From assembly GCA_026415395.1 (NCBI GenBank), contig JAOAHD010000007.1:715304-779303 (forward strand): a DNA stretch of 64,000 bases. Reading direction: 5' to 3'. Under the pieces are notes generated by a model. That model had not been told where the DNA came from. It searched no databases and saw nothing but the letters and a program-made list of their open reading frames with translations. The first letter of the stretch is position 1. Every line of letters starts with the position of its first letter. This document shows positions 6,292 to 51,458 of the stretch, one piece after another. The stretch is from Candidatus Binatia bacterium. Its GTDB lineage: Bacteria > Desulfobacterota > Binatia > HRBIN30. The position numbers were made by a program, and so were the translations under genes.

Positions 6292-8409
6292 TTAGCCGCA
6301 CGCTACGAGCCGCCAGCGCCGCGCATGGACACGCGGCTCCCAAGGTGCCTCGCTTAGCCGCGCTGCCCACACGTGACCGAGTCCAGCCCGATCCCAAACT
6401 TGGAACAACACCACCCCCGGATAAAACCTGCACAGGGACTTGCGCACATTGAAATCTTCCTCCAGGCCTGGGCTCCAAAACACCAAGTCCTTGCCATCGG
6501 CAACGAGTTGATCCACGGGCAGATGCGGCTGTTCGAGGCGCAAGTAGCCGACCGGCAAGGCCCAGCCGTACGCCGTCATCGGGCCCACGTACAACCAACG
6601 GACATCGTGGTGGAAGCCCGCGGGGTAGTCGATCACCACCGCGCGCGGTGCATCCCTGGGAGCCAAGCTTTCGAATGCAATCCCCGTAGAAGAGGCGCAC
6701 AACCACCGCTGCGGAATTTCATGACTGAGCAGCGCGCCGGCGGTGCAGCAGCCGAGCGAGGTAAGGGCCGCGACGAGGGGGCGCGTGGCATCAGGGATGT
6801 GCGCCAGTATTTGCCCCGCGCCGAGAGCTGCAATCAACGCGACCGGAACCCCCAAGCTTACAGCGTGCACCATATCGACCAAATCTACGGGCGACACGAA
6901 TGCGGGGCTCAACGCTGCGAGGAACAAGATCAACAGTTCGCGGGCTGTGGCACTGCGTTTGAAGTTGTGCACGCAGGCCAGCAAGCCAAGGGCAAAGAGG
7001 GTGGCTGTGAAGGGGTCGAAGATTGCATCGGTCCACAAACGGATGTGTAACCGGGGATGAGCAAAGGGCGCGAGCAGCGCGCCGAGAACAATATCGAGGG
7101 GGCGACGGATATCGACGCTGCGACTTCGCTCCATTAGCAGCACCGAGCCTTGACCGAGCAGTGCCCGATCGAGCGAGGCCGCAATCCCGTGGAACGAGAA
7201 GTGATGTGTACCTTCCCGCAGGGAAAATACCTCAGGTATTGCAGGCAACAGCGCAGCAGAAAAAATCAGTGCACCGGCAACCCAAGTGAGCCGATGCGTT
7301 CGCCATGTGGAGGGCCAGCGCGCGAGTACGGCAAGGCCGGCGACGCCAACAATGGGAACAACGCTTGGAAAGGTAAGGCCAAAGGCTGCGAGGGGACCAG
7401 TGCACACTAGGCTAGCCCGCGATCCGTTGAGACGAAATCGCCATACGGCAAGAAGCAGGGCCACCGTAACCACGGGGGCGAAAACAAACGGCGCAGGTAG
7501 AACTGCAAGATAATGAGTGAACGGCGAAAATAGAAATCCTGTGGTCCCAATCAGGGCCGGCAGTGCGCCTCCGATCCTCGTCGCGAGCAAAGCGAGGCCA
7601 GCGGCAGCTACCGCAAGCCAACTCATCTGTGCCAGCTGCATGCTCGCGAGGCTCGGCTCCACAAGCCCGAGTTGCCACAGGGGAACCCCCTGAAAGAGAA
7701 ACGGTAGTGCACCGAGATTGGGAAGCTCCGCATCGTATCGCTCTCCGAACAGTTTGCCGTTGCGGGCCGCGAACTGCAAAGCATCGACGAAAGCGCGCCA
7801 TTGGTCGACCGCGCGCGTCGCCTCTAGGCTGCCGAGTTCCACGCCGACAAAGAACCCGACCCAAGCGACGGTGACGAGGACGACCGGAAGTTGAGGCCGC
7901 AGGAGAGCGACTGCGGTTGGCGCAGACTGTTGTGGGCGTGGCGACGGCGACCAAAGACAGAGCGCCGGCACAAAGAGGCCGGCCAGGAACGCGAGCTGAC
8001 CGGGTAGCCCCGCGTGCTTGACCCAAGGGGCAGCGACGAACAAGGCAACCGCGAGACCTAGTGCCACGCGTTCTTGCCAAGCCGCCACGCTCGGGGTTGG
8101 GTGGAACTCGGCCGCGTCTTCAAAAGGGCGAAGATAGAAGCGGGCAAACAAGCAGGTGCAGAGCAGTAGTGCACTGAGCCGGGTTGCGATCCACCACGTC
8201 GGCACGCCTGGGAACAGCCTGCCGAGTACGTGCGCCTGCGGATTCCACTCGGTGAACTGTGCTGGAGGAGGCCACAAGAGGGGCAAAGCATAATAAAGGA
8301 ACAACAGGCCGATTATGAGAGGAACAGCCAATGGGAACCGCTTGCCGGATTGTCTCGTGCGCGATGGCTGCTTGATGGATCGCCCTGAGGGCACCTTGGC
8401 TCGTCGCAC
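6292..8409 (-). CDS. large polytopic membrane protein (>12 TM; possible GT-C-like glycosyltransferase, function unknown)
   Basis: The 705-aa protein is highly hydrophobic with many predicted helices and has a C-terminal soluble domain. I cannot assign a family. It lies downstream of Usp/TerC on the same strand. Confidence 0.45.
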   Translation of the reverse strand: MRRAKVPSGRSIKQPSRTRQSGKRFPLAVPLIIGLLFLYYALPLLWPPPAQFTEWNPQAHVLGRLFPGVPTWWIATRLSALLLCTCLFARFYLRPFEDAAEFHPTPSVAAWQERVALGLAVALFVAAPWVKHAGLPGQLAFLAGLFVPALCLWSPSPRPQQSAPTAVALLRPQLPVVLVTVAWVGFFVGVELGSLEATRAVDQWRAFVDALQFAARNGKLFGERYDAELPNLGALPFLFQGVPLWQLGLVEPSLASMQLAQMSWLAVAAAGLALLATRIGGALPALIGTTGFLFSPFTHYLAVLPAPFVFAPVVTVALLLAVWRFRLNGSRASLVCTGPLAAFGLTFPSVVPIVGVAGLAVLARWPSTWRTHRLTWVAGALIFSAALLPAIPEVFSLREGTHHFSFHGIAASLDRALLGQGSVLLMERSRSVDIRRPLDIVLGALLAPFAHPRLHIRLWTDAIFDPFTATLFALGLLACVHNFKRSATARELLILFLAALSPAFVSPVDLVDMVHAVSLGVPVALIAALGAGQILAHIPDATRPLVAALTSLGCCTAGALLSHEIPQRWLCASSTGIAFESLAPRDAPRAVVIDYPAGFHHDVRWLYVGPMTAYGWALPVGYLRLEQPHLPVDQLVADGKDLVFWSPGLEEDFNVRKSLCRFYPGVVLFQVWDRAGLGHVWAARLSEAPWEPRVHARRWRLVACG

Positions 8410-22913: not shown

Positions 22914-23036
22914 GATCGAACATGTTTGCTAGCGAGAGCCAAAAACAAAGCCAACTCGCTGCGGCATCAACTTGACTTTGTTCCCTGTGAACTCCAAAAG
23001 GCGCCCTTCATTGCATTGGGCGTCCCGCCTCGAGTC

Positions 23037-24407
23037 ATGCGCCGATTTGTTACGATTGTTGTTGTTGGTTTGATCGCCATGGGCGCCGGGCTGGTTTGGA
23101 TGCAGTGGGACCGCGCGCCCACGGTGATCGCCGACGAAACGAGTCCGGTAATCGGTGCTGCCGCTCCTGTTCGCCTGAGTGTGCGGAGCCCGGGACCGGG
23201 ACTGGAGGCCGTGCGGCTCACTGCGCGGCGGGGAGAGCACACTTGGCCACTGTACGAGCGGCTGTTTGTTCGGAGCACGTGGCGCGGAAGCGGAGTCAAC
23301 GAATGCGTGATCGACACGGTACCGAATTGGGCCGGGCTGGGCGTGGGAGACGGCGAGCTGGAAGTGGAGTTGTGGGCTTCCACGTACGGGTGGCACTTGT
23401 GGAGAGCGGAACAGGTACTGGTGTGGCAGCGCAAAATTGTTTTGGACACCACGCCGCCCCGGTTGGAGCTTTTGACCAGCCAGCACAATGTCCGTTTGGG
23501 CGGGGTGGAACTGGCCATTTGGCGCCAGTCGGCGGACGCCGTGCAAAGTGGCGTGGAGGTGGGAGAATATTTCTTCCCTGCAGTCCGTGGCTTCTTTGCT
23601 GACGCACAGTTGACAATGGGACTATTTGCGATTCCGCAGGATCTCGATGGCACTGCGCAACCGCGCGTGGTTGCATGGGATCACGCCGGCAATCGCAGCC
23701 AAGTTGCGATTCCAGTGGTCATTCAGATGCGCCGCTTTGCCGAGAGGATGTTGAACCTAGACGACGACTTCCTTGCCCGTAAGGTTCCGGAAATCGAGGC
23801 CGCCAATCAGTTGCCGGCCACAGGCACGCTGGTCGAGCGCTACCTGCGCATCAACCGTGACCTGCGGCGACAAAACGAAACGACCCTCCGGCAACTTGCA
23901 AGCAAGAGTCAGGCGACGCCCCACTGGTTTGGCACCTTTCACCGGCAATCGAACACTGCGCCGCTGAGTTCCTTTGCCGATCGGCGAACGTACGTGTATC
24001 GGGGTGAGCAGATCGACCGCCAGGTGCATTTGGGGTTCGATCTAGCTTCGATCAAGGCCAGCCCGGTCGAGGCGGCCCAGAAGGGCACCGTGGTGTTTGC
24101 TGGCAACTTGGGAATTTACGGCAACACGGTCGTCGTCGATCATGGGCTCGGCGTTTTTACGTTGTACGGGCACTTGCGAGCCATCGATGTGAAGCCAGGG
24201 GATTTGGTGGAACGGGGCCATCAGCTTGGCCTCACGGGAGAGACCGGCCTCGCCGCGGGCGATCACTTGCACTTTTCCGTGATGCTGTGGGGCGTGCATG
24301 TCGATCCCGTCGAGTGGTGGGACGGGAGTTGGATTCGCAAGCATCTGCTGGCAAAAATCGAAGCGTTTCCTCGCGCCTCTGTGAGTGAAGGGCAAGGGAG
24401 TCCATGA
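23037..24407 (+). CDS. M23 family metallopeptidase (EnvC/NlpD-like) with N-terminal signal anchor
   Basis: The C-terminal M23 motifs HLGFD (HxxxD) and HLHFSV (HxH) are present. The N-terminus MRRFVTIVVVGLIAMGAG is hydrophobic. An alternative TTG start lies at 22926. Confidence 0.75.
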   Translation: MRRFVTIVVVGLIAMGAGLVWMQWDRAPTVIADETSPVIGAAAPVRLSVRSPGPGLEAVRLTARRGEHTWPLYERLFVRSTWRGSGVNECVIDTVPNWAGLGVGDGELEVELWASTYGWHLWRAEQVLVWQRKIVLDTTPPRLELLTSQHNVRLGGVELAIWRQSADAVQSGVEVGEYFFPAVRGFFADAQLTMGLFAIPQDLDGTAQPRVVAWDHAGNRSQVAIPVVIQMRRFAERMLNLDDDFLARKVPEIEAANQLPATGTLVERYLRINRDLRRQNETTLRQLASKSQATPHWFGTFHRQSNTAPLSSFADRRTYVYRGEQIDRQVHLGFDLASIKASPVEAAQKGTVVFAGNLGIYGNTVVVDHGLGVFTLYGHLRAIDVKPGDLVERGHQLGLTGETGLAAGDHLHFSVMLWGVHVDPVEWWDGSWIRKHLLAKIEAFPRASVSEGQGSP

Positions 24408-25615
24408 GCAAGCAAGCACATGAACGGGTGTTGGAAAAAGGAGAAGGGCTGTTGCGCTCGTGGGGGTTACACCCATCCTCGCCGTTGAGCGACTTGGCCG
24501 CGAGAATGGGGCGTGATGCAGCCGCGGATGCGGCTCTTGCGCATTGGCTCGGAAGCCGCCCGGAGGCTGAAGCGGTGGCGCTCCTAGAAAAGCTCGCTGC
24601 GGCCGAGGATAAAACGGTACGTCGCGAAGCGCGCCGTGCTTTGTACCGGCTCGAGCAACGTGGCCTGGTTTCGCGAGCTGCGCCCCAGGAGGTTGTGGCG
24701 CGGCCGTTTCTGGAGGCAGAACCAGCGGTAACCGAGGCATATTTCTCCCAATATTTCAGCACGGGTGAACGTGAACTGTTCTTTGTGCGCAAGGGATCGG
24801 CGCGTTTGCTCGTCTTATTTGCCATAACGCGCGACTACGATCACTCCTTGCGGGAGCTCAGGCGGGTTGAGCTATCCAGAAAACAGTGGCGAGCGTCTCT
24901 CGAAGACAGCGCCCGCGGCGGTTACCCGCTCGCGAAAGGAGATGCTGCCCACTGCGACGCCCTGCTGTGGCGCGCGTATGAGAACGTGTCTTCTGTAGGG
25001 CAGCCAATCAGCGTGGACTATGCCGCCGTTCGCAGCGAATTCTTTCAGGGCCCGCCCCTCGCGACCGCTTCCCACCCTCTCACCCAGATTTATCCAGAGG
25101 CAGAACTCGCAGAGGTCCCGATCGCCGCGAGGCAAATCGGTGAGAGACTCTTGAACGAGAAGGCCGTTCTCTCGCTTGCCGCTGGCCTGCTGGACCGGTT
25201 GAGGGAGTTCGTCGAGCGTATTCGCGAGGTGCAGGCAAGCCCACTGGTGTTAACCGACGTTCAAAAGCAGGAACGGCAAGCGCAAATCGTTGCGCAGGCC
25301 ATCGACACCGTTTTTGCGCCTGCGGAGCGCCCGTCGTGGGTCCATCGTCTACGAGAAGTGGGCTACTACGTGCACCTCATGGGCAAGAGCTCCGTTGCCC
25401 GTGAGCTTGCGGCGACGGCCTTTGCGTTGGAGAAGCCAGGGATCGATCCAAAACAGGTAGCGTTTTGTCGGGCGGCAGTAGAAACCTTGATTTTTATTGA
25501 GCTTTATGAGCGCGAGCTCGCGGAAGCGGAGAGGGCGAAGGAGTCCCTAATCGTCACGCCCGACCGGCTCGTGCGCGCTGCTCGCGCTGCTAAGGAACGC
25601 ACCCCACGTCGTTGA
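24404..25615 (+). CDS. hypothetical protein (403 aa), translationally coupled to the M23 peptidase
   Basis: ATGA start/stop overlap with the peptidase, preceded by a strong RBS AAGGGAG. I recognise no family. Confidence 0.55.
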   Translation: MSKQAHERVLEKGEGLLRSWGLHPSSPLSDLAARMGRDAAADAALAHWLGSRPEAEAVALLEKLAAAEDKTVRREARRALYRLEQRGLVSRAAPQEVVARPFLEAEPAVTEAYFSQYFSTGERELFFVRKGSARLLVLFAITRDYDHSLRELRRVELSRKQWRASLEDSARGGYPLAKGDAAHCDALLWRAYENVSSVGQPISVDYAAVRSEFFQGPPLATASHPLTQIYPEAELAEVPIAARQIGERLLNEKAVLSLAAGLLDRLREFVERIREVQASPLVLTDVQKQERQAQIVAQAIDTVFAPAERPSWVHRLREVGYYVHLMGKSSVARELAATAFALEKPGIDPKQVAFCRAAVETLIFIELYERELAEAERAKESLIVTPDRLVRAARAAKERTPRR

Positions 25616-25748
25616 ACGACGGAATGCTGATACCGTCAGTTGGCGACGGATCCGCCCTCGTCGACCGCAAGCAGAAAAATTTGCTTTGACTAGGTGGCGG
25701 CTGGTGGCTTAAGCTTCGCGGCAGTCTTCCGAACTGGGGGTCGGTCGG

Positions 25749-26897
25749 TTGCGAGCGAGGAGCCGTGCAAAGGGAACTGGCCGGGCTAAGCCCAAGCAGC
25801 GCCAGTGGAAAACCTGGTTCGAGTGGTTGCCGATTCCGGCTTGGGTTGAGTCCCAGAGCAAATTGCTGCACGCGAATCAGGCGGCGATCGCCGCATTTGG
25901 AGCGCGCTCCCTCGAGGAGTTGCAACAGGCTTGGAGACGGGTTCACCCTTGCCTTGACCGCAAGTTGCCACTGCGAGGGGACGCGATGGGGACCTCGGCG
26001 GAGGGACCCTTGGAAGTGGAAGCGCGGCATGTAGACGGGCGGCCCCTGTTCTTGGTCATGTTCGCCTCCCTCCTGCCGGCTCGACCACGAGCCATTCTGG
26101 TTGTGGCATGCGCTCGGCAACTCTCGGAAAAGGTCACCCTGGAATTACAGAAGGAGCGGGCCGCCCGAGAAAAGGCCGAGTCGGAGCTTCGGGATCAAAG
26201 CCTCTGGTCCGCACTGGGTACGTTGGTGGGGCGGGTGGCTCATGACATTCGCAACCCCCTGTTTGGAATGCTGGCCACGATCGATGCCCTGGAAGCCAAG
26301 ATTGGCGCGCCTGATGTGCAAGAGTATTTCAACGTCTTGCGGAGCGAGGGGCACCGCTTGAACCGGTTGCTAGAGGAGCTGCTCGCGTTCGGACGCGGGG
26401 GGAGGGCCCGGCGCCGCGAGATTGTGGAGCTCGGCGGCGTCGTTGGGGAGGCGATGCGGCAGTGTGAGCAACTGGCCAAGGAACGAGGTGTTACCTTAAA
26501 AATCGTGCACCGTGCCGCGAGCGCCCGCGTGAATGCGGATGAGGAACATTTGGTGCAGGCGGTGCAGAACATCGTGCAAAACGCCGTCCAGCATTCGCGT
26601 CCAGGGAGCGAAGTGGCGGCATTTACGTCGGTGTTGAAGCGAAAAGGCGGAGGCATGGCGGTGTGCGAGGTGTGGGACGCCGGCCCAGGTTTTCGCCCCG
26701 AGGACCTCCCGCACGTGTTCGAACCGTTCTTTTCGCGGCGCTCTGGGGGTACCGGTCTTGGCCTGGCCATCGCTGCGCGGATCGTGAGCGATCACGGGGG
26801 AACCATCCGCGTGGGCAACCGCCCGCGTGGCGGGGCGTGGGTGCGCATAGAAATTCCGGTGGCGCGAGAAAGAAGAAGCTCAGGCCCAAGCGAATGA
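25749..26897 (+). CDS. cytoplasmic sensor histidine kinase (PAS-like N-terminus, HisKA, HATPase_c)
   Basis: The H-box is ..VAHDIRNPLFGMLATIDAL.. and the G-boxes are ..GPGFRPEDLPHVFEPFFS..GTGLGLAIA.. . The start is uncertain (TTG 25749; first ATG about 240 nt downstream). Confidence 0.75.
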   Translation: MRARSRAKGTGRAKPKQRQWKTWFEWLPIPAWVESQSKLLHANQAAIAAFGARSLEELQQAWRRVHPCLDRKLPLRGDAMGTSAEGPLEVEARHVDGRPLFLVMFASLLPARPRAILVVACARQLSEKVTLELQKERAAREKAESELRDQSLWSALGTLVGRVAHDIRNPLFGMLATIDALEAKIGAPDVQEYFNVLRSEGHRLNRLLEELLAFGRGGRARRREIVELGGVVGEAMRQCEQLAKERGVTLKIVHRAASARVNADEEHLVQAVQNIVQNAVQHSRPGSEVAAFTSVLKRKGGGMAVCEVWDAGPGFRPEDLPHVFEPFFSRRSGGTGLGLAIAARIVSDHGGTIRVGNRPRGGAWVRIEIPVARERRSSGPSE

Positions 26898-28276
26898 GTT
26901 TGCGGGTGCTCGTTGCTGACGACGAAGATACAGTGCTGTTTGCCTTGCGAGAATATTTAGGATCGCGAGGCTGGCAGGTCACAGAGGCACGGAGCGCGGC
27001 AGAACTCTGGCGGGCAATCGAACAGGGACTGCCAGATGTCGTCCTGCTCGATTACCAGCTCCCGGATGCTACTGCGCTCGACATTCTTGCGGCGCTACGG
27101 GAAAGAATCCCGACGGTACCGGTGATCATCCTCACCGGATTTGGTTCGATCGAACTTGCGGTTAAGGCCATGCAATTGGGGGCAAAACAGTTTCTGACCA
27201 AGCCGCTCGATTTGCCGACCTTGGCTACGCTCATTGAGCGGGTGGATAGCGAGCGGCGAGCGGAGGCGTTGTATCTTGTTAGCCGCGAGTCGCAGGTGCG
27301 CCGCGAGGCCAATCCGTTTGTCGGGACCAGCCAGGCCATCCGTCGTGTGGAACAGTTGGCAAAGAAAATTGCTCGGTCCGATGCGGCGGTGTTACTCACT
27401 GGCGAGACGGGTACGGGCAAAGGCGTGCTTGCGCGTTGGCTACATGCTCAAGGCCCGCGCCGAGGGAACCCATTTGTCGACATTAACTGCGCTGGACTGG
27501 GTGGCGAGTTGCTCCACGCTGAACTGTTTGGGTACGAAAAGGGTGCCTTCACAGGGGCGGTGGAACGTAAGCTTGGCCTGGTGGAGCTTGCCCACCGTGG
27601 CACACTGTTTCTCGACGAGATTGGCGACATGGACCTGGCCGTGCAGGCGAAATTGCTCAAGGTGCTGGAAGAGCGTCGCTTTCGGCGCTTGGGCGCCGTT
27701 GCCGATGTCCAAGTCGACATTCGCTTGATCAGTGCCACGCACCATGACCTGACACAGGCCGTGGTGCGTGGCAGTTTTCGCTCGGACCTATACTACCGCA
27801 TCGCCGTGGTCACACTCGAGCTGCCGCCCCTCCGCGAGCGCAAGGAAGACGTTCCTTTGTTGGCCGAGGAAATGCTTCGGCAGTTCGCGCCAGCAGGAAG
27901 GGATGGTCCTTGGAGACTTTCGCCGGAAGCGATTCAGGCTCTGGTGAGGTATTCCTGGCCGGGAAATATTCGGGAGCTGCGAAACGTGCTCGAACGAGCG
28001 ACGTTACTCGCCAATGGGCCCACCATTGGCGCGGAACACTTAGCCGTTGGGGTGGCTGGCTTCGTGGCCGCCCCGAACGTAATGGCTGTAGAGGAGAACG
28101 CGGACCTGCCATTGGCCGAAGTGGAAAAGCGCCACATTCTGCGGGTCTTCGATGCAGTGGGGGGGGATGTGGCCCGAGCTGCCGAGCGCTTAGGGGTGCC
28201 GCGCAGCACGCTGTATCAGCGGTTGCAAAGCTACGGAGTGCAGCCGCGGCGTCCGCGCAAGGCCCGGCGTTCCTAA
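26894..28276 (+). CDS. sigma-54-dependent NtrC-family response regulator (REC + AAA+ sigma54 activator + Fis HTH)
   Basis: The receiver is VLVADDEDTV...VVLLDYQLPD. Walker A is GETGTGKGVLARWLH. The GAFTGA loop reads ELFGYEKGAFTGAV. A C-terminal HTH is present. The ATGA overlaps the HK stop. Confidence 0.85.
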   Translation: MSLRVLVADDEDTVLFALREYLGSRGWQVTEARSAAELWRAIEQGLPDVVLLDYQLPDATALDILAALRERIPTVPVIILTGFGSIELAVKAMQLGAKQFLTKPLDLPTLATLIERVDSERRAEALYLVSRESQVRREANPFVGTSQAIRRVEQLAKKIARSDAAVLLTGETGTGKGVLARWLHAQGPRRGNPFVDINCAGLGGELLHAELFGYEKGAFTGAVERKLGLVELAHRGTLFLDEIGDMDLAVQAKLLKVLEERRFRRLGAVADVQVDIRLISATHHDLTQAVVRGSFRSDLYYRIAVVTLELPPLRERKEDVPLLAEEMLRQFAPAGRDGPWRLSPEAIQALVRYSWPGNIRELRNVLERATLLANGPTIGAEHLAVGVAGFVAAPNVMAVEENADLPLAEVEKRHILRVFDAVGGDVARAAERLGVPRSTLYQRLQSYGVQPRRPRKARRS

Positions 28277-28515
28277 CCGCAATCCTGCCGCGGCTGCGGC
28301 GGGGCTGGAACTGGGCAACGGGGAATCGGAGGGTCGCAGCCATGTTCCGGTATCGCCCGCTGCTACGGCACCTCCCTGCCGGTCTCTCCCAGATTCCAGA
28401 TTCCAGAAGTGAGAAGCGTTCGCGCAAATCGCCGCCAGAAGACGCGGGCCCGCAGCGCACGGGCTGGTTGGCATGTTGGTCGCTCTTGTCGGTGGACAGA
28501 GGTCCAAGTTTCACC

Positions 28516-28977
28516 ATGAAAGATATTTGGGACGAAAGAACAAGGATTCTGGTCATTGCGCCACGGTGCTCGGCTACGCAGGCAATTGTTCGGCGCTTGC
28601 GTAGCGAGGGATTTGTGGTGGATGTCGCACCAACCCCGCAACAGGCGTTCGCCCGGGTTGATCTGGTCCGGTACGATATCGTCGTTGGCCACCAGCGCAT
28701 CGACCGGAGCCGACGCGAAATGCTGGCAGAGCTGGCCCGCTTCGTTCGCCGTCGCCGCCCACAAGCAGGCTTGATCGAGATCTCCGGCTGCACAAGCGGG
28801 CCGGGCGACGAGTGTTGCGAGGCGGCACCGTTTCGCGCGCGCTCTCTGGCTTGCCGCGGAGCCAACTCCTTGTTGGTTCAGTCCGTGCTGGAACTCATCC
28901 AGCGTGCGGTGTCAGCAGCGGGATGTTCGTCGCCGCATGAGCCTTGTTCAGATGAGTTCAAGGCGGCGAATTCATGA
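28516..28977 (+). CDS. degenerate (pseudo-)receiver domain protein
   Basis: It has a CheY-like fold pattern, but the acidic pocket is replaced (ILVIAPRCS in place of ILVVDDD) and the phospho-acceptor Asp position is YDIVVGHQ, with G where LLD has D. The ATG is at 28516; the upstream part of ORF 27910.. overlaps the sigma54 regulator and is rejected. Confidence 0.5.
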   Translation: MKDIWDERTRILVIAPRCSATQAIVRRLRSEGFVVDVAPTPQQAFARVDLVRYDIVVGHQRIDRSRREMLAELARFVRRRRPQAGLIEISGCTSGPGDECCEAAPFRARSLACRGANSLLVQSVLELIQRAVSAAGCSSPHEPCSDEFKAANS

Positions 28978-29363
28978 GCCGCCTGCTGGTGGTTGAAGAC
29001 TCGGACGCGCTTCGCTTTGCGATGCGAGAGTTCTTTCAGAACCGTGGCTATACGGTCGACGAAGCGAGCAGCTTGGCGGAGGCGCTGCGGCATATCGCTC
29101 GGAGGTCTTATGCAGCGGTTCTGTTGGATTGGTCGCTAACGCCGGACGGAGCGGAGGGGGCGGAGGTTCTCCGTTATCTCCGCGGCGGCAAGGTGCGGAA
29201 GCCGCCACTTGCCGTGGTGGTGACGGCCCTGCGGGATGCCGAAGTGGAGCGAATGGCACGATCACTTGGCGCGCAGCATGTTCTGTGGAAGCCGGTCGAC
29301 CTCAGCCAGCTCGCAGCCCTGTTGCCCCCGCCAAGGCCGACGTCTGCCAAGCCAAAGAAGTGA
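28974..29363 (+). CDS. single-domain response regulator (CheY-like receiver)
   Basis: It has LLVVEDSD, the phospho-Asp context AVLLDWSL, T in VVVTAL and K in LWKP. ATGA overlaps the previous gene. Confidence 0.75.
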   Translation: MSRLLVVEDSDALRFAMREFFQNRGYTVDEASSLAEALRHIARRSYAAVLLDWSLTPDGAEGAEVLRYLRGGKVRKPPLAVVVTALRDAEVERMARSLGAQHVLWKPVDLSQLAALLPPPRPTSAKPKK

Positions 29364-29394
29364 TTGAAATCAGCGCGGAACGAAGCAGAGGAAA

Positions 29395-30222
29395 ATGTCG
29401 AACGGCAAACAAGCGGACCCGCAAAATCGCTGGCAAAACAATGCTGAGACGAATCTCCGGGAAACCCACGCGGACGAGGAGCGGGGAGCAGCACAACCGG
29501 ACCTCACGCCCCGAGAAGCCGAGATTGAGAGGCTGCGTGCAGAGCTCGAGGAGACCCGCCGCGCGTTTGACCACTTTGCATGCGCTGTGGCCCATGACTT
29601 GCGTACACCGCTGCGTCACATCGAAGCGTTCGCTCACTTGATCCAAAAGGAGGTTCCCGACGCGAGCGCGGTTGCGCAGTCGTACTTGGTAAGCCTGAGA
29701 AATGCGGTGGCCGACATGCGGGAATTGCTCGAGGCCTTATTGCGCCTCTGCCGCGCGGGCCATGCCCCGTTGGCGCGCCGGCGCGTGGACCTCAAGCAGA
29801 TGGTGCTGACCATCCTGGCCAGATTCCAACGCCGCTTCCCACAGCGCGTAACCCAAGTCACGTTCCGCGGCGATCTCGAAGCCTCTGCGGACCCAGACTT
29901 GACGTATCTCCTCCTCCACGCGCTTCTCGACAATGCATGGAAGTACGCGCAACCCCGGCCAACTACGACGCTCGAAGTTGGGGAGCGGCTTTGCGGAAGT
30001 CACCGCGTGTATTACGTGCGCGATTTCGGAGTAGGTTTTCCGCAGGAGCAGGCCCAAGAGCTGTTCAAGCCCCTGCGCCGCTTGCACTCCAGCGCCGAAT
30101 TCGAGGGCGTCGGGCTAGGGCTGGCGTTAGCCAAGCGGATTGTCGAACGGCACGGCGGGGAGATCTGGGCCGAAGGAGAAGTCGGCCAGGGGGCTTGCTT
30201 CTACTTCACGTTAGGTGCGTAG
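29395..30222 (+). CDS. cytoplasmic histidine kinase (HisKA + HATPase_c)
   Basis: The H-box is ..AVAHDLRTPLRHIEAF.. and the ATPase region is ..DFGVGFPQEQAQELFKP..GVGLGLALAKRIV.. . Confidence 0.8.
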   Translation: MSNGKQADPQNRWQNNAETNLRETHADEERGAAQPDLTPREAEIERLRAELEETRRAFDHFACAVAHDLRTPLRHIEAFAHLIQKEVPDASAVAQSYLVSLRNAVADMRELLEALLRLCRAGHAPLARRRVDLKQMVLTILARFQRRFPQRVTQVTFRGDLEASADPDLTYLLLHALLDNAWKYAQPRPTTTLEVGERLCGSHRVYYVRDFGVGFPQEQAQELFKPLRRLHSSAEFEGVGLGLALAKRIVERHGGEIWAEGEVGQGACFYFTLGA

Positions 30223-44024: not shown

Positions 44025-45818
44025 ATGGCGGGAGGTGAGCAGATAGCACGGGGTGCCGGTGTGGACACGTCCTTTGTGCTGCTGGGACACGATCGCCAGG
44101 AAGGCAGGTGGGTTCCCCAGCTCTTGGTGCAGGAGGGGAGTAGAGCGCGTTGTGCGCCTCGTTGGCGAGGCTTCGTTGCCGTGCTCGCTGTGTCTTTTGT
44201 TTTGGCGGCAGTAGCCGAAGGTCAGCTAATTTTTGTGAACGCGGCCGCAAGTGGGGCCAATAATGGATCGACGTGGAGCGACGCATTTACCAAGCTGCAA
44301 GATGCTCTTGCCGCGGCCTCCGCTGGGCAAGACATTTGGGTTGCCCGCGGCGTGTATTACCCGGACGAAGGTGGGGGGCAAACCAACAACGACCGCCTCG
44401 CCACCTTCCAGCTCAAAAATGGGGTGGGCGGCTTCGCCGGCGGGGAAAGTAGCCTCGCCCAACGCAACCAAGCCGTGAACATCACTGTTCTCAGTGGGGA
44501 CATCGACCAAAACGACACCGTCGATGCGAATGGCATCGTGTTGTCACATGCCGACATTGCCGGGGACAACAGTTATCAGGTCGTTAGAGGCAGCAACACG
44601 AACGCGTCCGCCACAGTCGATGGCTTCACGATCACGGGCGGACTGGCCAACGGGAGTGTCACTCCGTGTGGTACCGTGTGCGGGGCGGGAATGCTGAACG
44701 ACAACGGGAGTCCGACTCTGTTCAATCTCGTGTTTGCGGGTAATTTCGCGGCCAATGCAGGTGGGGACATGGCGAATGTCAATGGCAGTAGCCCGGTTTT
44801 AACGAACGTGAGGTTTTTTCAGAACCGCGCCGGGCAAGGGGGGCGGGATGGCAAATTTGGACGGGAGTAGCCCAGTGCTCCGTCAGGCGGTGTTTGTGGG
44901 CAATTTGGCCCAAGTCGGCAGCGGGGGGAACGGTGGGGGGGGATGTTCAACCTCAACTCCAGCCTGCCCCAGTTGACCAACGTGAACTTTGTCGGCAACG
45001 AGACGCTCGTGAATGGTGGGGGTATGTTCAACCAAAACAGCAGCGCTGCAACGCTCGAGAATACCGGATTTTTCGGCAACAGGGCGAGTTTCGGTGGTGG
45101 GCTTTACAACCTCGGGAGCAGCGACGCCGAGCTGGTGAACGTGGTGTTTTCGGGCAACTTGGCGTTTCGCTCTGGGGGCGGTAGCGGCGGGGGAATGTTG
45201 AACAACAGCAGCAGTCCGGTGCTGACCAACGTCACTATCGCGGGCAATGTGGCTGCGGGGTCCATCCAGCAAGGTGGAGGGATGCTGAATGGGAACGCTA
45301 GCCAGCCTGTGCTCGTGAATGTCATTTTGTGGGGGAATGTTGCGGCGAGCGCCAAGGAGATGTCGAACGTCGGGGGCAGTATGCCGCAAATTTCGTTCAG
45401 TCTCGTCGAGGGCTCGGGTGGGAGCGGGATTGGGTGGAATACTGCCTTTGGTGCAGATGGTGGGGGCAACTTGGATGCGGACCCCCTGTTTTCCGACCCT
45501 GATGGAGCAGACAACACGCCGGGCACGTTGGACGACGATTTGCGTTTACGATCCGGGTCACCAGCGATCGACGCCGGAAATAATAGCGCCCCTGGACTGG
45601 CCGGTATCACCACCGATTTTGCGGGTGGGCTTAGGTTCATGGAGGATCCGCTCACGTTCGACACGGGGCAGGGCTTGCCTCCAGTGGTGGATATGGGTGC
45701 CTTCGAGTTCCGCCGTGCGTTATCTGCTCGTGTTCCGGTGCAGAGCTTGTTCGCGCTGGTGCTCGGCGTGCTTGCGCTGCTCTTGGTGGCGCAGCGGAAA
45801 CTGTGGGCGAAAGGTTAG
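44025..45818 (+). CDS. Pmp-repeat / right-handed beta-helix (choice-of-anchor-type) surface protein, interrupted by two compensating frameshifts at poly-G tracts
   Basis: About ten 27-aa repeats of the form GGGM(L/F)N..SSP.LTNV.F.GN.A.. occur. The as-given frame 0 hits TAG at 44868. The repeat continues in the +1 frame (GGMANLDGSSPVLRQAVFVGNLAQVGSGGNGGGG) between G6 (44838-44843) and G8 (44935-44942), then returns to frame 0 at ATG 44943. The C-terminus reads ..DMGAFEF + hydrophobic helix + QRK. Confidence 0.7.
44690..45360 (+). repeat. tandem ~81-bp coding repeats (Pmp-type 27-aa units)
   Basis: Recurring ..ggcggggg(a)atgttcaac..agcagc..gtgctgaccaacgtg.. units occur within the beta-helix gene. 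They are protein-coding, not CRISPR. Confidence 0.6.
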
Positions 45819-46775: not shown

Positions 46776-48257
46776 GTGCGGATTGCCTGTCTTTATGTTC
46801 CCGAATTTCCCTTGGCTGCGTGGCTGCGCGCCGAACCCGAACTGCGCACGCAAGCAGTCGTTGTTGTGGAGCGACTCGATCCGCGCAGCCCCCTGTTAGC
46901 AACATCGCGCGCTGCATGGCGCTGGGGCATTGGCCCCGGCATGCGACTCAGCCAAGCACAGAGCCTGTGCCGCACGTTGGTGGTTCGGCCCTGCAGTCGC
47001 TTGTTGCAAGAAAGTGCCCGCGCCGCACTGATGGACGCCGCTAGTTCTTGCTCTCCCTTGGTCGAGCCCGCAGAGGACGGCGTGGTGTACATCGGTCTAG
47101 AAGGGCTCATTGGCCACTGGTGTCGTACGGAGACCCAATGGGCAAGCCAACTCTCTGCACGTTGCGAACGCCTCGGCGTGCCGGCCCGCGTAGCAGTAGC
47201 CAGCACGAAAACGGCAGCCTTGCTGGCTGCGATGCGCCGAGAAGGCGTAACGGTGTTGGACCCAGCGGAAGAAGCCACTTTTCTTGCGCCGGTACCGATT
47301 GCGGCTTTGCGCCCGAGCCCACCCTTGCTTGCTACCTTGGAGCGCTGGGGTATCCACACCATCGGCCAACTCGTGCAACTCCCCTTGGAGGCTGTAGGCA
47401 CGCGCTTGGGGCCGGAGGGGATTGCGCTGATCCGCCGCGCTCGCGGAGAAGAGCTCCAGCCATTGCAACCGCGTCCGTGTCCAATGGTGTTTGAGGAGGG
47501 CATGGAGTTCGATTACGAGATCGACTCTCTCGAACCTTTAACCTTCGTGCTGCGAGCGCTGCTCGACCGAGTCACGGCGCGCCTGGTAGCACGTGGGTTT
47601 GCCTGTGCAGCCTTGCAACTGGGCATGCATTTGTCGGGCACAGGTTGGGAGGATCGCACAGTTGCCGTGGCATACCCAAACAACGAGGTCAAAGCCCTGC
47701 TCGCCTTGTTGCGTGTGCATCTCGAGCAGCAGCCTCCGCAAAATGCCATCGATGCCGTACGGTTGCGGGCGCGCCCCGAGATGCTGCGTGCAAGTCAGCT
47801 CGACTTATTTCGCCCGCCAGGCCCACCCTCGGCTAGCCTGGCCGCCATGCTCGCACAACTTTCCGCTTTGTGTGGCAGCGAGCGCGTGGGAAGCCCAACG
47901 GTGTTGGCCACGCATCGTCTCGACGGTGACGGCATGGTCCCCTTCGGCACGCGCGGGAACTGGCAGAGCGCCGCGCCTCCCCCGAGCGCACTACCACCAC
48001 TGGCCTTGCGCCGTTTTCGCCCGCCGCTTCCCGTGAAAGTGTTTTCCGAGCGTGAACGGCCGGAGTTCGTGCGCGGTCCTGGATTCGGTGGTCGCGTAGT
48101 GTCCTGGGGTGGCCCGTGGCGCATCCGTACGGAGTGGTGGAGCGAAGCGACGTATGTGCGCGATTACTACGACGTGCAACTGAGCGACGGTGGGCTTTAC
48201 CGCCTCTTTCGCGATGAGCAACGGCAACAATGGTTTGCGGATGGGGTGTATGACTGA
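46776..48257 (+). CDS. imuB: ImuB (catalytically inactive Y-family polymerase-like protein)
   Basis: The N-terminus MRIACLYVPEFPLAAWLRAEPELRTQAVVVVE is typical of ImuB, with Y-family fold spacing. It is 493 aa. Confidence 0.8.
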   Translation: MRIACLYVPEFPLAAWLRAEPELRTQAVVVVERLDPRSPLLATSRAAWRWGIGPGMRLSQAQSLCRTLVVRPCSRLLQESARAALMDAASSCSPLVEPAEDGVVYIGLEGLIGHWCRTETQWASQLSARCERLGVPARVAVASTKTAALLAAMRREGVTVLDPAEEATFLAPVPIAALRPSPPLLATLERWGIHTIGQLVQLPLEAVGTRLGPEGIALIRRARGEELQPLQPRPCPMVFEEGMEFDYEIDSLEPLTFVLRALLDRVTARLVARGFACAALQLGMHLSGTGWEDRTVAVAYPNNEVKALLALLRVHLEQQPPQNAIDAVRLRARPEMLRASQLDLFRPPGPPSASLAAMLAQLSALCGSERVGSPTVLATHRLDGDGMVPFGTRGNWQSAAPPPSALPPLALRRFRPPLPVKVFSERERPEFVRGPGFGGRVVSWGGPWRIRTEWWSEATYVRDYYDVQLSDGGLYRLFRDEQRQQWFADGVYD

Positions 48258-48302
48258 CAGCGCTCGTGTTCGGGACATGCTTTGCCGGAAAGGGCAGCAA
48301 CG

Positions 48303-51300
48303 ATGAACTACGTCGAGCTCCGCTGTCATTCGGCATTTCACTTTCTCGCCGCCGCTTCCTTGCCGGAAGACCTCGTTGCCCGCGCGGCTGCTCTCGGGTA
48401 CGACGTGTGTGCTCTAGGCGATGCCGACGGCGTGTACGGTGCCCCGCGCTTTTACCGGGCCGCACGCGAGGCTGGGATCCGGCCGTTAGTGGGCTGTGAG
48501 TTGACACTACGGCGCTGGGGTGAGGAAGGCCAATCCACGCGCCGCCCGCCCACACACTTGTATGTGTTGGTGGCTACTCGCACAGGTTACAGCAATCTGT
48601 GCCGTTTAATCACCCAGAACAAGCGCAAGTTTCCCAAGGGGGCAGCCGTGCTCACATGGGAAGAATTGACGGGGTTTACCGATGGGCTCATTTGTCTGGC
48701 CCGCGACGCATTGTTTCCCGAACCGTTTTGCTTTGCCCCCGAAGCCCTGCAAACACTTCGCCGCTTGTTCCCTGGCCGTTTGTATCTCGAACTCCACCGC
48801 CACGGTGATCCGGCAGAGGAGCGCCACAACCGCATTCTGTGCGACGTGGCAGCCCGCTTCGGTGTGCCCCTCGTGGCCACCAACGACGTGCGTTACGCCG
48901 TACCCGAGCTGCAATCCCTCTGCGACGTGCTCACCTGCATTCGCCACCACACCACGATCGATGCCGCCGGATGGCTGCTCGAGCGCAATGCCGAGCGTTA
49001 CCTCAAACCGCCAGCAGAGATGGAGCAACTGTTCAGCGATTTTCCGGCGGCCGTCCGCAATACACGGGCGATTGCCGAGCAATGCGAATTTACCCTCGCC
49101 AACTTGGGTTATCGTTTCCCGGAATATCCCGTGCCGGCAGGGCAAACAGCGCAAGAGCATTTGCGGGAGTTGGTCTACCGCGGTGCGCGTGAAAGTTACC
49201 GTTGCCTGACGGCAAAAGTGCGGGGCCAGCTCGAACACGAGCTGCATGTAATCGGCAAACTCGGGTTAGCAGGATATTTTTTGATCGTTTGGGACATTGT
49301 TCGCTTTTGCCGCGAGCAAGGAATCCTCGCACAAGGGCGCGGCTCTGCCGCCAACAGTGCCGTATGTTACGCCTTGGGGATCACGGCAGTCGATCCGGTG
49401 GGGATGGAGCTTCTCTTCGAACGCTTCCTTTCGGAAGAACGGGGTGAATGGCCGGATATCGACATTGACCTTCCAAGCGGCGACCAGCGCGAGCGCGTGC
49501 TGCAGTATGTGTATGGCCGTTACGGTCCTCATGGCGCTGCCATGACCGCCAATGTGATCACCTACCGCTTGCGCAGTGCCGTGCGGGAAGTGGGGAAAGC
49601 GTTGGGGTTTTCGTTGGAGCAGCTCGACCGTTTGGCCAAGTTCCTTCACCGCTTCGAATTCCGTGATGCGCACGACAACGACCTCCCGGCTCACATGCAT
49701 GCGGCTGGGCTCGACCCACAGGCCCCCCGATCGCGTTTGCTCGTGCAACTCGTCGAGCGCATTTTGCACCTCCCGCGCCACTTGGGTCAGCATTCTGGCG
49801 GAATGATTATCGCGGCCGGGCGGCTCGACGAAATCGTGCCCTTGGAGCCCGCGCGCATGCCCGGGCGTGTGGTCGTGCAGTGGGACAAGGACGATTGTGC
49901 CGACCTTGGAATCATCAAGGTCGACTTGCTCGGCCTCGGCATGATGGCCGTTTTGGAGGAAGCGTTACCGCTGGTCCGCCAGCACGAAGGCGTGGAGATC
50001 GACCTCGCTCACTTGCCCCCCAACGACCCCAAAACTTACGCGCAACTGCAGCAAGCCGACACGGTCGGCGTCTTCCAAGTAGAAAGCCGCGCGCAGATGG
50101 CCACGTTGCCGCGTCTCCGGCCACGGTGTTTTTACGACTTGGTGGTGGAGGTGGCCCTGATCCGCCCCGGACCGATTGTTGGTCAAATGGTGCATCCTTA
50201 CCTGCGCCGCCGCGCCGGACGCGAACCGATTACGTACCCCCATCCGTCGCTCGAACCTATTCTGCGGCGCACCCTTGGGGTGCCGTTGTTTCAAGAACAG
50301 TTGCTACGTATTGCCATGACGGTGGCCGGCTTCTCGGGTGGCGAAGCCGAAGAGCTCCGGCGGGCCATGGGGTTTAAGCGCTCGCTCGAACGGATGCGCG
50401 CCATCGAAGCCAAACTGCGTGCCGGCATGGCTGCCCGCGGCATCGTCGGCAAAACGGCGGAAGAAATCGTGCGCAGCATTACCTCGTTTGCTCTTTATGG
50501 GTTCCCTGAATCACATGCTGCCAGCTTTGCCTTGTTGGCGTATGCTTCGGCATACCTCAAGGCACACCATCCCGCAGCGTTTACTTGCGCCTTGCTGAAC
50601 AATTGGCCCATGGGTTTTTATCACCCCGCTACCATTGTGAAGGATGCCCAACGCCACGGGGTGCGGGTGCTGCCGATCGATGTGACCCGCTCGACGTGGC
50701 GGTGCAGCTTGGAGCGGATGGCGGCTGGGGAGGGAAGCCGGCTTTGCTTGCGGCTCGGGCTCAAGTACGTGCGGGGTTTGCGCGCAGAAGCAGGCGAGCG
50801 CATTGTGCGGGAACGAGAAACAAAACCCTTTGCCTCGCTGGAGGATTTTGTTCATCGCTGTGCTTTGCGCGAGAGCGAGCTTGCCACGCTGGCGGAAATC
50901 GGGGCATTGGCAGCGTTCGGACACACGCGCCGGAGTGCCTTGTGGCAAGCCGCTGCTGTTGCGCGTGGCCCGCTGTTTGCCGCTGCAACCGAGCAAGACC
51001 ACAATAATGAAGTCGAGCCGAGCCCTCTGCCAGAGATGCTCCCCGTGGAGCGTACTTTGGCAGACTTAAAGGGAAGTGGCGTTACCGTTGGCCCGCATCT
51101 CATGGCACATTGGCGAGCGCAGCTCGAGGCACGAGGCTTTGTACCGGCACGCACTCTACCCCACTGCCACCACGGACAGTGGGTGAAAGTGGCGGGGCAT
51201 GTCATCGTCCGCCAACGCCCAGGTACAGCCAAGGGCTTTTGTTTTCTCACGCTGGAAGACGAAACTGGCTTGGCCAATGTGGTTCTGACCCCGGCATTCT

Positions 51301-51458
51301 TCGAACGGCACCGTACCTTGTTGCTCACCGCACCTTTGCTGGAAGTAGAAGGTTATTTGCAGCACGTCGATGGGGTCATTCACGTTCGTGCGCAAAGATT
51401 GCATCGCCTTGCGCTCTCCCAGGCACTCACCTCCTCTGAGCTCACAAGCGACGCATGA
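48303..51458 (+). CDS. dnaE2: error-prone DNA polymerase DnaE2 (ImuC)
   Basis: It starts with the PHP domain MNYVELRCHSAFHFLAAAS.. and is about 1050 aa of Pol III alpha homolog without a tau-binding tail. ATG 48303 is preferred. Confidence 0.9.
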   Translation: MNYVELRCHSAFHFLAAASLPEDLVARAAALGYDVCALGDADGVYGAPRFYRAAREAGIRPLVGCELTLRRWGEEGQSTRRPPTHLYVLVATRTGYSNLCRLITQNKRKFPKGAAVLTWEELTGFTDGLICLARDALFPEPFCFAPEALQTLRRLFPGRLYLELHRHGDPAEERHNRILCDVAARFGVPLVATNDVRYAVPELQSLCDVLTCIRHHTTIDAAGWLLERNAERYLKPPAEMEQLFSDFPAAVRNTRAIAEQCEFTLANLGYRFPEYPVPAGQTAQEHLRELVYRGARESYRCLTAKVRGQLEHELHVIGKLGLAGYFLIVWDIVRFCREQGILAQGRGSAANSAVCYALGITAVDPVGMELLFERFLSEERGEWPDIDIDLPSGDQRERVLQYVYGRYGPHGAAMTANVITYRLRSAVREVGKALGFSLEQLDRLAKFLHRFEFRDAHDNDLPAHMHAAGLDPQAPRSRLLVQLVERILHLPRHLGQHSGGMIIAAGRLDEIVPLEPARMPGRVVVQWDKDDCADLGIIKVDLLGLGMMAVLEEALPLVRQHEGVEIDLAHLPPNDPKTYAQLQQADTVGVFQVESRAQMATLPRLRPRCFYDLVVEVALIRPGPIVGQMVHPYLRRRAGREPITYPHPSLEPILRRTLGVPLFQEQLLRIAMTVAGFSGGEAEELRRAMGFKRSLERMRAIEAKLRAGMAARGIVGKTAEEIVRSITSFALYGFPESHAASFALLAYASAYLKAHHPAAFTCALLNNWPMGFYHPATIVKDAQRHGVRVLPIDVTRSTWRCSLERMAAGEGSRLCLRLGLKYVRGLRAEAGERIVRERETKPFASLEDFVHRCALRESELATLAEIGALAAFGHTRRSALWQAAAVARGPLFAAATEQDHNNEVEPSPLPEMLPVERTLADLKGSGVTVGPHLMAHWRAQLEARGFVPARTLPHCHHGQWVKVAGHVIVRQRPGTAKGFCFLTLEDETGLANVVLTPAFFERHRTLLLTAPLLEVEGYLQHVDGVIHVRAQRLHRLALSQALTSSELTSDA

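Follow-up and report, generated by a model that had tools for sequence, protein, structure and literature searches.

The window analyzed here, a 64,000-nucleotide stretch of contig JAOAHD010000007.1 from Candidatus Binatia bacterium, carries on its + strand five co-directional open reading frames (ORFs) between positions 25749 and 30222. They encode, in this order, a soluble histidine kinase (HK1), an NtrC-type enhancer-binding protein (EBP), a receiver-like protein lacking the phosphorylatable aspartate (g3), a canonical single-domain receiver (REC), and a second soluble histidine kinase (HK2) (table 1). A first-pass annotation made from the letters of the window had already recognized these five signaling genes, and Pfam searches and residue alignment agree with its domain assignments for all five products. 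It had also placed them in a single operon. The cluster looks instead like two linked transcription units, HK1-EBP and g3-REC-HK2, the second of which is preceded by a conserved sigma-54-type promoter.

Table 1. Features of the five-gene cluster and of related loci (window coordinates unless a locus is named).
Feature	Position	Strand	Description
AT palindrome AAGCA-N8-TGCTT	25669..25686	.	One match in the window; no evidence of function
HK1, soluble histidine kinase	25749..26897	+	382 aa, TTG start; Pfam HisKA 8.6e-12, HATPase_c 2.9e-26
EBP, NtrC-type response regulator	26894..28276	+	460 aa; Pfam Sigma54_activat 1.1e-64, Response_reg 3.9e-25, AAA_lid_14, HTH_8
Candidate upstream activating sequence	28394..28415	+	TTCCAGATTCCAGAAGTGAGAA, TTCYRGAA-type repeats, 54-75 nt upstream of the -24 element
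Sigma-54-type promoter	28469..28483	+	-24 TGGCAT, N5, -12 TCGC; GG-N10-GC spacing; ends 33 nt before the g3 ATG
Probable g3 ribosome-binding site	28498..28502	+	AGAGG; in the window, L001, and L005 as CAGAGG, 10-13 nt upstream of the ATG
g3, putative stand-alone Asp-less pseudo-receiver	28516..28977	+	153 aa
REC, canonical single-domain receiver	28974..29363	+	129 aa; Pfam Response_reg 2.9e-16
HK2, sensor-less soluble histidine kinase	29395..30222	+	275 aa; Pfam HisKA 5.3e-8, HATPase_c 5.6e-20
Long non-coding stretches	L006:5273-6000, 6463-6910; L008:5233-6000, 6427-6993		Unusually long for compact genomes

For comparison, we recovered 17 related loci in about nine lineages, designated by L numbers, with HK1 orthologs and a profile of the g3 family. 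In the window, ATGA overlaps couple HK1 to EBP and g3 to REC, and the second overlap recurs in each of the four five-gene lineages. REC and HK2 lie 31 bp apart. These three junctions fit the overlaps or gaps of less than 35 bp on which the proposal of a single operon was based. The EBP-g3 junction does not: it measures 239 bp in the window and 115-239 bp across the five-gene lineages, and this conserved gap, together with the conserved promoter inside it, splits the cluster into two plus three genes. We rejected an upstream in-frame ATG at 28342 (GGAGG 9 nt upstream, 211-aa product) as the start of g3. The orthologs lack the corresponding extension and all begin at the MK..WDER position, the gap lengths among them differ by non-multiples of three, and the gap does not show the coding GC codon-position pattern seen in the genes. 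Even if used, this ATG would leave 65 bp between EBP and g3.

When the window was searched for -24/-12 sites, the pattern TGGCAY-N5-TYGC gave a single match over both strands, that at 28469-28483 before g3. With two mismatches to the sigma-54 consensus, 81 sites were observed and 93 expected; this count is at chance level and therefore has no weight alone. As the window match by itself is not significant, the argument for a promoter rests on position and conservation. In nine of nine lineages, the g3 start is preceded at 19-33 nt by a -24/-12 element, in the form TGGCAC-N5-TCGC in most of them, TGGCAC-N5-TGGC in L008, and TGGCGT-N5-CTGC in L016. In a stack of seven deep lineages on the promoter (56 columns), only TGGCa......t.GC is conserved in at least six of the seven, and the background of the degenerate -24/-12 pattern, estimated on 150 kb of related loci, is ~5e-5 per strand-bp. 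Transcription of g3 would start near 28494-28496. The first-pass annotation had seen no evident sigma-54-dependent target in the window. This is overturned by the conserved element inside the cluster, and the best candidate for such a target is the predicted promoter of g3-REC-HK2 itself.

The promoter is accompanied by an upstream element whose position is conserved in all five-gene lineages (GATTCTAGAATCGAGAA in L001, GATTCCAGAATCGAGAA in L002, and GATTCTGGAAATTGCAA in L005). Searched without mismatches, TTCYRGAANNKRSAA has a single site in the window, at 28394-28415, where it matches on both strands, and no further copies were found elsewhere in the window. Loci that carry g3 alone have an AT-richer variant at the same place, present in 'bacterium HR30' as two copies ~33 nt apart. 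Most EBP sites lie within 100 nt of their promoter, and EBP genes are commonly co-localized with the promoters under their control (PMC4641369). The distance between the upstream element and the -24 element fits this geometry, and we infer that the adjacent EBP is the activator of the g3 promoter. A GC-rich hairpin (CCUGCCGCG..CGGCGGGG, 28283-28304) directly 3' of the EBP stop codon lacks a subsequent U-run and might act as a partial terminator or stabilize the transcript. No structured RNA or riboswitch was detected in the EBP-g3 region or upstream of HK1 (fold z-scores 0.32 and 0.05, respectively). The only Rfam match in these intergenic regions, SNORA70 (E=0.33), was discarded as a chance hit.

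HK1 is made of a PAS-like N-terminus (~residues 20-125), a DHp domain (H165), and a CA domain. The motifs HDIRNPL (containing H165), QNAVQH, DAGPGF, and GGTGLGL are kept in six orthologs. Five orthologs align over the full 382 aa, with an N-terminus conserved from ~residue 18. These orthologs support the TTG-start ORF with its PAS-like N-terminus, and the public gene model of 303 aa, whose start excludes window positions 25749-25985, is therefore too short. That model is named 'HAMP domain-containing'; no HAMP domain was found in HK1. Examination of the kinase N-termini for sensor domains gave matches to PAS_8, all below threshold, in six of six HK1 sequences (best 8.4e-5) and no sensor domain in HK2. 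A PDB sequence search with the profile of the HK1 N-terminus found nothing, and neither kinase has a transmembrane-like segment. The predicted HK1 sensor is short, divergent, PAS-like, and cytoplasmic.

EBP combines a receiver domain whose active-site quintet, read from the sequence, is complete (D9 D10 D53 T81 K103), an AAA+ sigma-54 interaction domain with the motifs GETGTGKG and EKGAFTGA, and a C-terminal Fis-type helix-turn-helix (HTH). HK1 and EBP have the features that define the kinase and the regulator of an NtrC-type sigma-54 two-component system, and they share with NtrB/NtrC, AtoS/AtoC, and ZraS/ZraR the domain order, the catalytic residues, GAFTGA, and the Fis-type HTH. Unlike in these systems, HK1 is soluble and its PAS-like domain is short and divergent. 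NCBIfam places the pair nearest AtoS/ZraS and AtoC/NtrC. The best matches of EBP are AtoC, NtrC, and a PEP-CTERM regulator, and all scores of the pair fall far under the equivalog cut-offs (380 bits for AtoC versus 714), so that orthology to NtrC, AtoC, ZraR, or another named system was not found. Judged by its sequence, the HK1/EBP pair joins the NtrB/NtrC kind as a new member.

In the g3 product of the window, A15-P16 replaces the acidic pair DD, G58 replaces the phospho-Asp, and the Lys is missing. Compared with REC and the EBP receiver, all g3 orthologs have AP for DD, G, A, or V for the phosphorylated D, S or A for Thr, and no Lys. The window protein has no match in Pfam, including PF00072, or in NCBIfam, and one ortholog matches PF00072 below the cut-off (E=0.0011). 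A word-indexed homolog search returned g3 alone; the family emerged through an exhaustive HMMER search (phmmer). Of 1.84 billion cluster representatives, six belong to it at E<1e-10; among 5.8 billion proteins it forms seven clusters. The next-best phmmer matches are bona fide Pfam receivers (E 5e-7 to 5e-4), aligned over g3 residues 8-100. An AlphaFold model based on a six-sequence alignment (predicted local distance difference test, pLDDT, 74.3) has the order b1-a1-b2-a2-b3-a3-b4-(loop)-b5-a5, with three confident beta-alpha units at the start and low confidence for residues 90-115. Computation thus predicts a receiver-like, Asp-less fold, in which helix alpha4, absent from the model, is probably missing. 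In the alignment, C18 and H59, which are nearly invariant (both missing in L008), and C92, which is invariant, map to the three loops that form the active site of receivers (beta1-alpha1, beta3-alpha3, and beta4-alpha4). According to published definitions (PMC12632262), the sequence of g3 would make it a stand-alone aspartate-less pseudo-receiver, missed by the Pfam receiver model.

REC has a complete quintet (E8 D9 D52 T84 K106), kept in four orthologs. Single-domain CheY-like receivers serve as phosphate sinks or connectors. Like them, REC is small (129 aa), retains all active-site residues, has no output domain, and is encoded beside a kinase. It differs from them by a Pro/Arg/Lys-rich C-terminal tail (LLPPPRPTSAKPKK, window 29320-29363), conserved in all orthologs and reaching up to 25 residues in L002, and by the lack of chemotaxis or other partner genes nearby. 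This basic tail, unusual for a single-domain receiver, could be a nucleic-acid-, membrane-, or protein-binding output. HK2 is reduced to a coiled N-terminus of 55 aa, a DHp domain (H67), and a CA domain; its orthologs measure 241-276 aa. The 3' end of its gene overlaps a convergent gene for a PMT-family glycosyltransferase by 22 bp.

The first-pass annotation had staked its reading on conservation of the gene order and on g3 not being a frameshift fragment of a neighboring gene. Four lineages share the order HK1-EBP-g3-REC-HK2: the window, L005, the L002 group, and L001. In the first three, the cluster is flanked by an M23 peptidase gene (with or without a 403-aa HEAT-like ORF) on one side and by the convergent PMT-family glycosyltransferase and SIR2 genes on the other. 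Both flanks differ in L001, OmpA-like on one side and imuB-dnaE2 on the other, and the five genes are still together. As for g3, it is a gene in its own right and no such fragment: an ORF of 151-155 aa is found in nine lineages, four of which lack all four neighboring signaling genes. These g3-only loci (L006=L012 'bacterium HR30', L017, L008, and L016) have the usual flanks and no relics of HK1, EBP, REC, or HK2 at E<=1. The tree of the flanking proteins (1241 columns) has the topology (L002,(window,(L005,(L006,L008)))), which indicates that the g3-only state is a derived loss in one clade. In these loci, ~700 nt upstream and 450-570 nt downstream of g3 contain no convincing ORF or relics. 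The record of L001 is labeled Fimbriimonadales, and its imuB-dnaE2 flank resembles the Binatia window, in which an imuB (IMS family)-dnaE2 error-prone polymerase cassette occupies positions 46776-51455, 17 kb from the cluster.

We consider it somewhat probable that these two coupled transcription units make up a two-tier sigma-54 cascade of two two-component modules. Cytoplasmic HK1 would autophosphorylate on H165 upon an intracellular cue and hand its phosphoryl group on to EBP, its translationally coupled partner, at D53; homology and translational coupling give us high confidence that HK1 would phosphorylate EBP. Once phosphorylated, EBP would oligomerize on the TTCYRGAA-type element and open the complex of sigma-54 holoenzyme at the -24/-12 promoter that directly follows its own gene, yielding a g3-REC-HK2 transcript. 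For this activation our confidence is moderate, on the basis of the conserved adjacency and of the footprints. As HK2 has no sensor domain, its activity would be set mainly by its abundance and its protein partners, as was shown for Geobacter GnfK (PMC2995071). REC is its presumed phospho-acceptor, with an output that might pass through protein contacts or the basic tail. Not being phosphorylatable, g3 might act as a receiver mimic that docks on HK2, HK1, or REC, thereby tuning phosphotransfer and providing feedback on the pathway. By analogy with known pseudo-receivers, such mimicry might take place on the DHp domain of a kinase or on a receiver partner, a proposal we make with low confidence. 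The integrity of the five-gene block in L001, although both flanks differ, counts in favor of the cascade.

Several observations weigh against it. The single match to TGGCAY-N5-TYGC is what chance predicts for the window (1.19 expected), the upstream element could instead be an architectural, IHF-like site, and rpoN was not seen in the window. Furthermore, no terminator was scored between EBP and g3, so that read-through co-transcription is possible. This last point, the common direction of the genes, and their travel as one block in L001 favor the view of the first-pass annotation, a five-gene operon transcribed from upstream of HK1. In such an operon phosphotransfer would be branched: REC would draw phosphoryl groups off the HK1-to-EBP pathway as a sink, or HK2 would feed a second input into it, with the pseudo-receiver as an adaptor. 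REC is indeed 35-41% identical to the EBP receiver in the ortholog alignment, and helix alpha1, the main kinase-recognition surface, is similar in the two (LRFAMREFF..RGY versus VLFALREYL..RGW). Such an operon is compatible with an internal promoter. However, a conserved sigma-54 promoter between EBP and g3 speaks for a control of g3, REC, and HK2 that is their own. The two kinases also have unlike DHp sequences below the phospho-His (FGMLATIDAL in HK1, RHIEAFAHLI in HK2), which suggests different partners, and the palindrome proposed as the operator of such an operon is not conserved. We consider the branched operon possible but rather improbable. A phosphorelay, the term used in the first-pass annotation, is unwarranted in the strict sense, because Pfam detects neither an Hpt domain nor a hybrid (receiver-fused) kinase in any of the five proteins.

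The dependence of the g3 promoter on the neighboring EBP is also questioned by the relatives. The g3-only clade keeps g3, the -24/-12 element, and the upstream AT-rich dyad with none of HK1, EBP, REC, and HK2 adjacent; another EBP must serve the promoter there, and g3 is not strictly dependent on its cluster partners. In the EBP gene of L001 (L001:7686-9068), an in-frame TAG at about position 8331 of the locus replaces the Glu before GAFTGA (ELFGY*KGAFTGA), while g3, REC, HK2, and the -24/-12 element are intact. This stop codon may be a genuine nonsense mutation or stem from an error of assembly. The g3 promoter might accordingly be under a different EBP encoded elsewhere, the HK1-EBP pair controlling distant sigma-54 promoters and its adjacency to g3 being historical. 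We regard this as unlikely, given that EBP and the promoter have stayed adjacent in four lineages, including the one whose flanks were rearranged, and that the upstream element reads GATTCYRGAA..GAGAA where EBP is present versus YTCYAAAAWTTG where it is absent. The two types of element fit a change of activator after the loss of EBP, in a comparison that is confounded by phylogeny.

Finally, g3 changes fast. Between close relatives (L002 versus L013 and L014), its ratio of nonsynonymous to synonymous substitution rates (dN/dS) is ~0.8, with the same dS as its neighbors; in the same comparison, M23, EBP, and HK2 have values of 0.13-0.19 and REC of ~0.5. This suggests a weak constraint on g3, a further point against the cascade. 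The changes cluster in helices alpha1 and alpha3. A second pattern is seen between L006 (5780-6300) and L017 (2700-3250). The two loci share 99-100% identity in M23, in the HEAT-like gene, and in the 3' flank, and drop to 79-89% only in the AT-rich elements upstream of g3 and in the initial two thirds of g3 itself. In this pair, dS is 0.30 in g3 versus 0.01 in the flanks, and the dN/dS of g3 is 0.28. We rejected a diversity-generating retroelement as the origin of this patch, the substitutions being mostly transitions of all kinds with no adenine-specific bias. It looks as if recombination had replaced one allele by another, or as if co-existing alleles had been joined into a mosaic during metagenome assembly. 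The fast change of g3 could reflect weak constraint or co-evolution with partners, and the long-term retention of its ORF and promoter disfavors pseudogenization. That g3 is the remnant of a receiver gene, without function and in decay, its frame kept open by chance in a GC-rich genome, as its high dN/dS, the lack of a Pfam match, and the very small family might suggest, is highly improbable in view of its intact ORF down to 35% identity with ~18-25 invariant residues, its codon-position GC pattern, which is that of its neighbors and not of the gap, the lower dN/dS in the L006/L017 pair, the conserved promoter, ribosome-binding site, and ATGA coupling to REC, the confident prediction of the first three beta-alpha units, and its retention in a clade that lost the four neighbors.

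The two-tier cascade has a precedent in Geobacter sulfurreducens, where the kinase GnfL and the EBP GnfM directly activate the RpoN promoter of gnfK, encoding a sensor-less kinase, and GnfK then phosphorylates a second response regulator, GnfR (PMC2995071). Both systems comprise a kinase and an NtrC-type EBP, a -24/-12 promoter with nearby upstream sites, and a sensor-less histidine kinase behind this promoter. Unlike in the Gnf system, the second tier of the proposed Binatia cascade is encoded immediately downstream of EBP, a basic-tailed single-domain receiver takes the place of the ANTAR antiterminator as second regulator, and the first gene predicted to be induced encodes an additional Asp-less pseudo-receiver.

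Pseudo-receivers are likewise of a known kind. The cis pseudo-receiver domains of ShkA and CikA bind DHp and inhibit autophosphorylation, and a similar docking on partners was proposed for CmrT, encoded within the two-component operon CmrRST (PMC12632262). Like CmrT, g3 has a receiver-like fold, here a predicted one, without phospho-Asp and is embedded in a two-component cluster. It differs from CikA, ShkA, CmrT, and RitR in being a stand-alone protein without output domain, missed by the Pfam receiver model and probably devoid of alpha4, in lacking DD and K besides D, and in having its own predicted sigma-54 promoter. Redox control through Cys residues has precedents in RitR and HP1021 (PMC12632262, PMC4395418). 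In the known cases the Cys lies in a linker or in the alpha1-beta2 loop; in g3, conserved Cys occupy the former active-site loops. We can imagine, as a speculation to which we give little credence, that g3 founds a new class of trans-acting "sensor pseudo-receivers". Their pocket, rebuilt with Cys18, His59, and Cys92, might bind a metal or form a redox-sensitive disulfide, and by docking, depending on this state, on the DHp domain of HK2 or another kinase without a sensor they would supply in trans the input domain that it lacks. If so, the rapid, local divergence of g3, in alpha1, in alpha3, and in the patch of different alleles between otherwise near-identical genomes, would be a trace of co-evolution with partners that change.

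We found no publication combining a pseudo-receiver and sigma-54, and nothing relevant for Binatia in the literature searched. Neither a stand-alone pseudo-receiver family undetected by Pfam, nor a sigma-54 promoter dedicated to such a family, nor the conserved HK-EBP / PsR-REC-HK arrangement (PsR, pseudo-receiver) is described in the searchable literature. If the cascade model holds, the cluster is a compact, self-contained transcriptional cascade in which regulator, sigma-54 promoter, and induced second module lie side by side, and its wiring, from the uncultured phylum Binatia, could be tested directly in a heterologous host. With g3, the cluster also adds a putative stand-alone pseudo-receiver family missed by current domain models. 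How bacterial pseudo-receivers are switched on and off was called "a mystery" in a 2025 review (PMC12632262); as a small single-domain protein with a defined promoter and neighboring partners, g3 would be a convenient system for studying it. Public annotation can also be corrected for the start of HK1, the receiver-like nature of g3, and the internal sigma-54 promoter.

Upstream of HK1, the first-pass annotation had pointed to the palindrome AAGCA-N8-TGCTT. The sequence is present as described, and we found no support for a role. The pattern has at least one match in 13 of 100 shuffles and is absent from 17 of the 17 related loci; the regions upstream of HK1 do not align (mean column identity 40%), and the RNA fold z-score around the palindrome is 0.05. 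Being unconserved, not unusual, and without stable structure, it was rejected as an operator or a terminator. No sigma-70 promoter was scored between 24000 and 31000, the palindrome region included. The M23 gene and the 403-aa ORF preceding the cluster (22926-25615) overlap by ATGA, and the ORF has a weak HEAT_2 match and no family. The pair is kept in the window, L005, L006, L008, and L017; the 403-aa gene is missing from the L002 group. Farther downstream, at 44025-45818, two adjacent ORFs (281 and 291 aa) have no Pfam match; GC skew reaches its maximum for the window, 0.193, in the 2-kb stretch where they are found.

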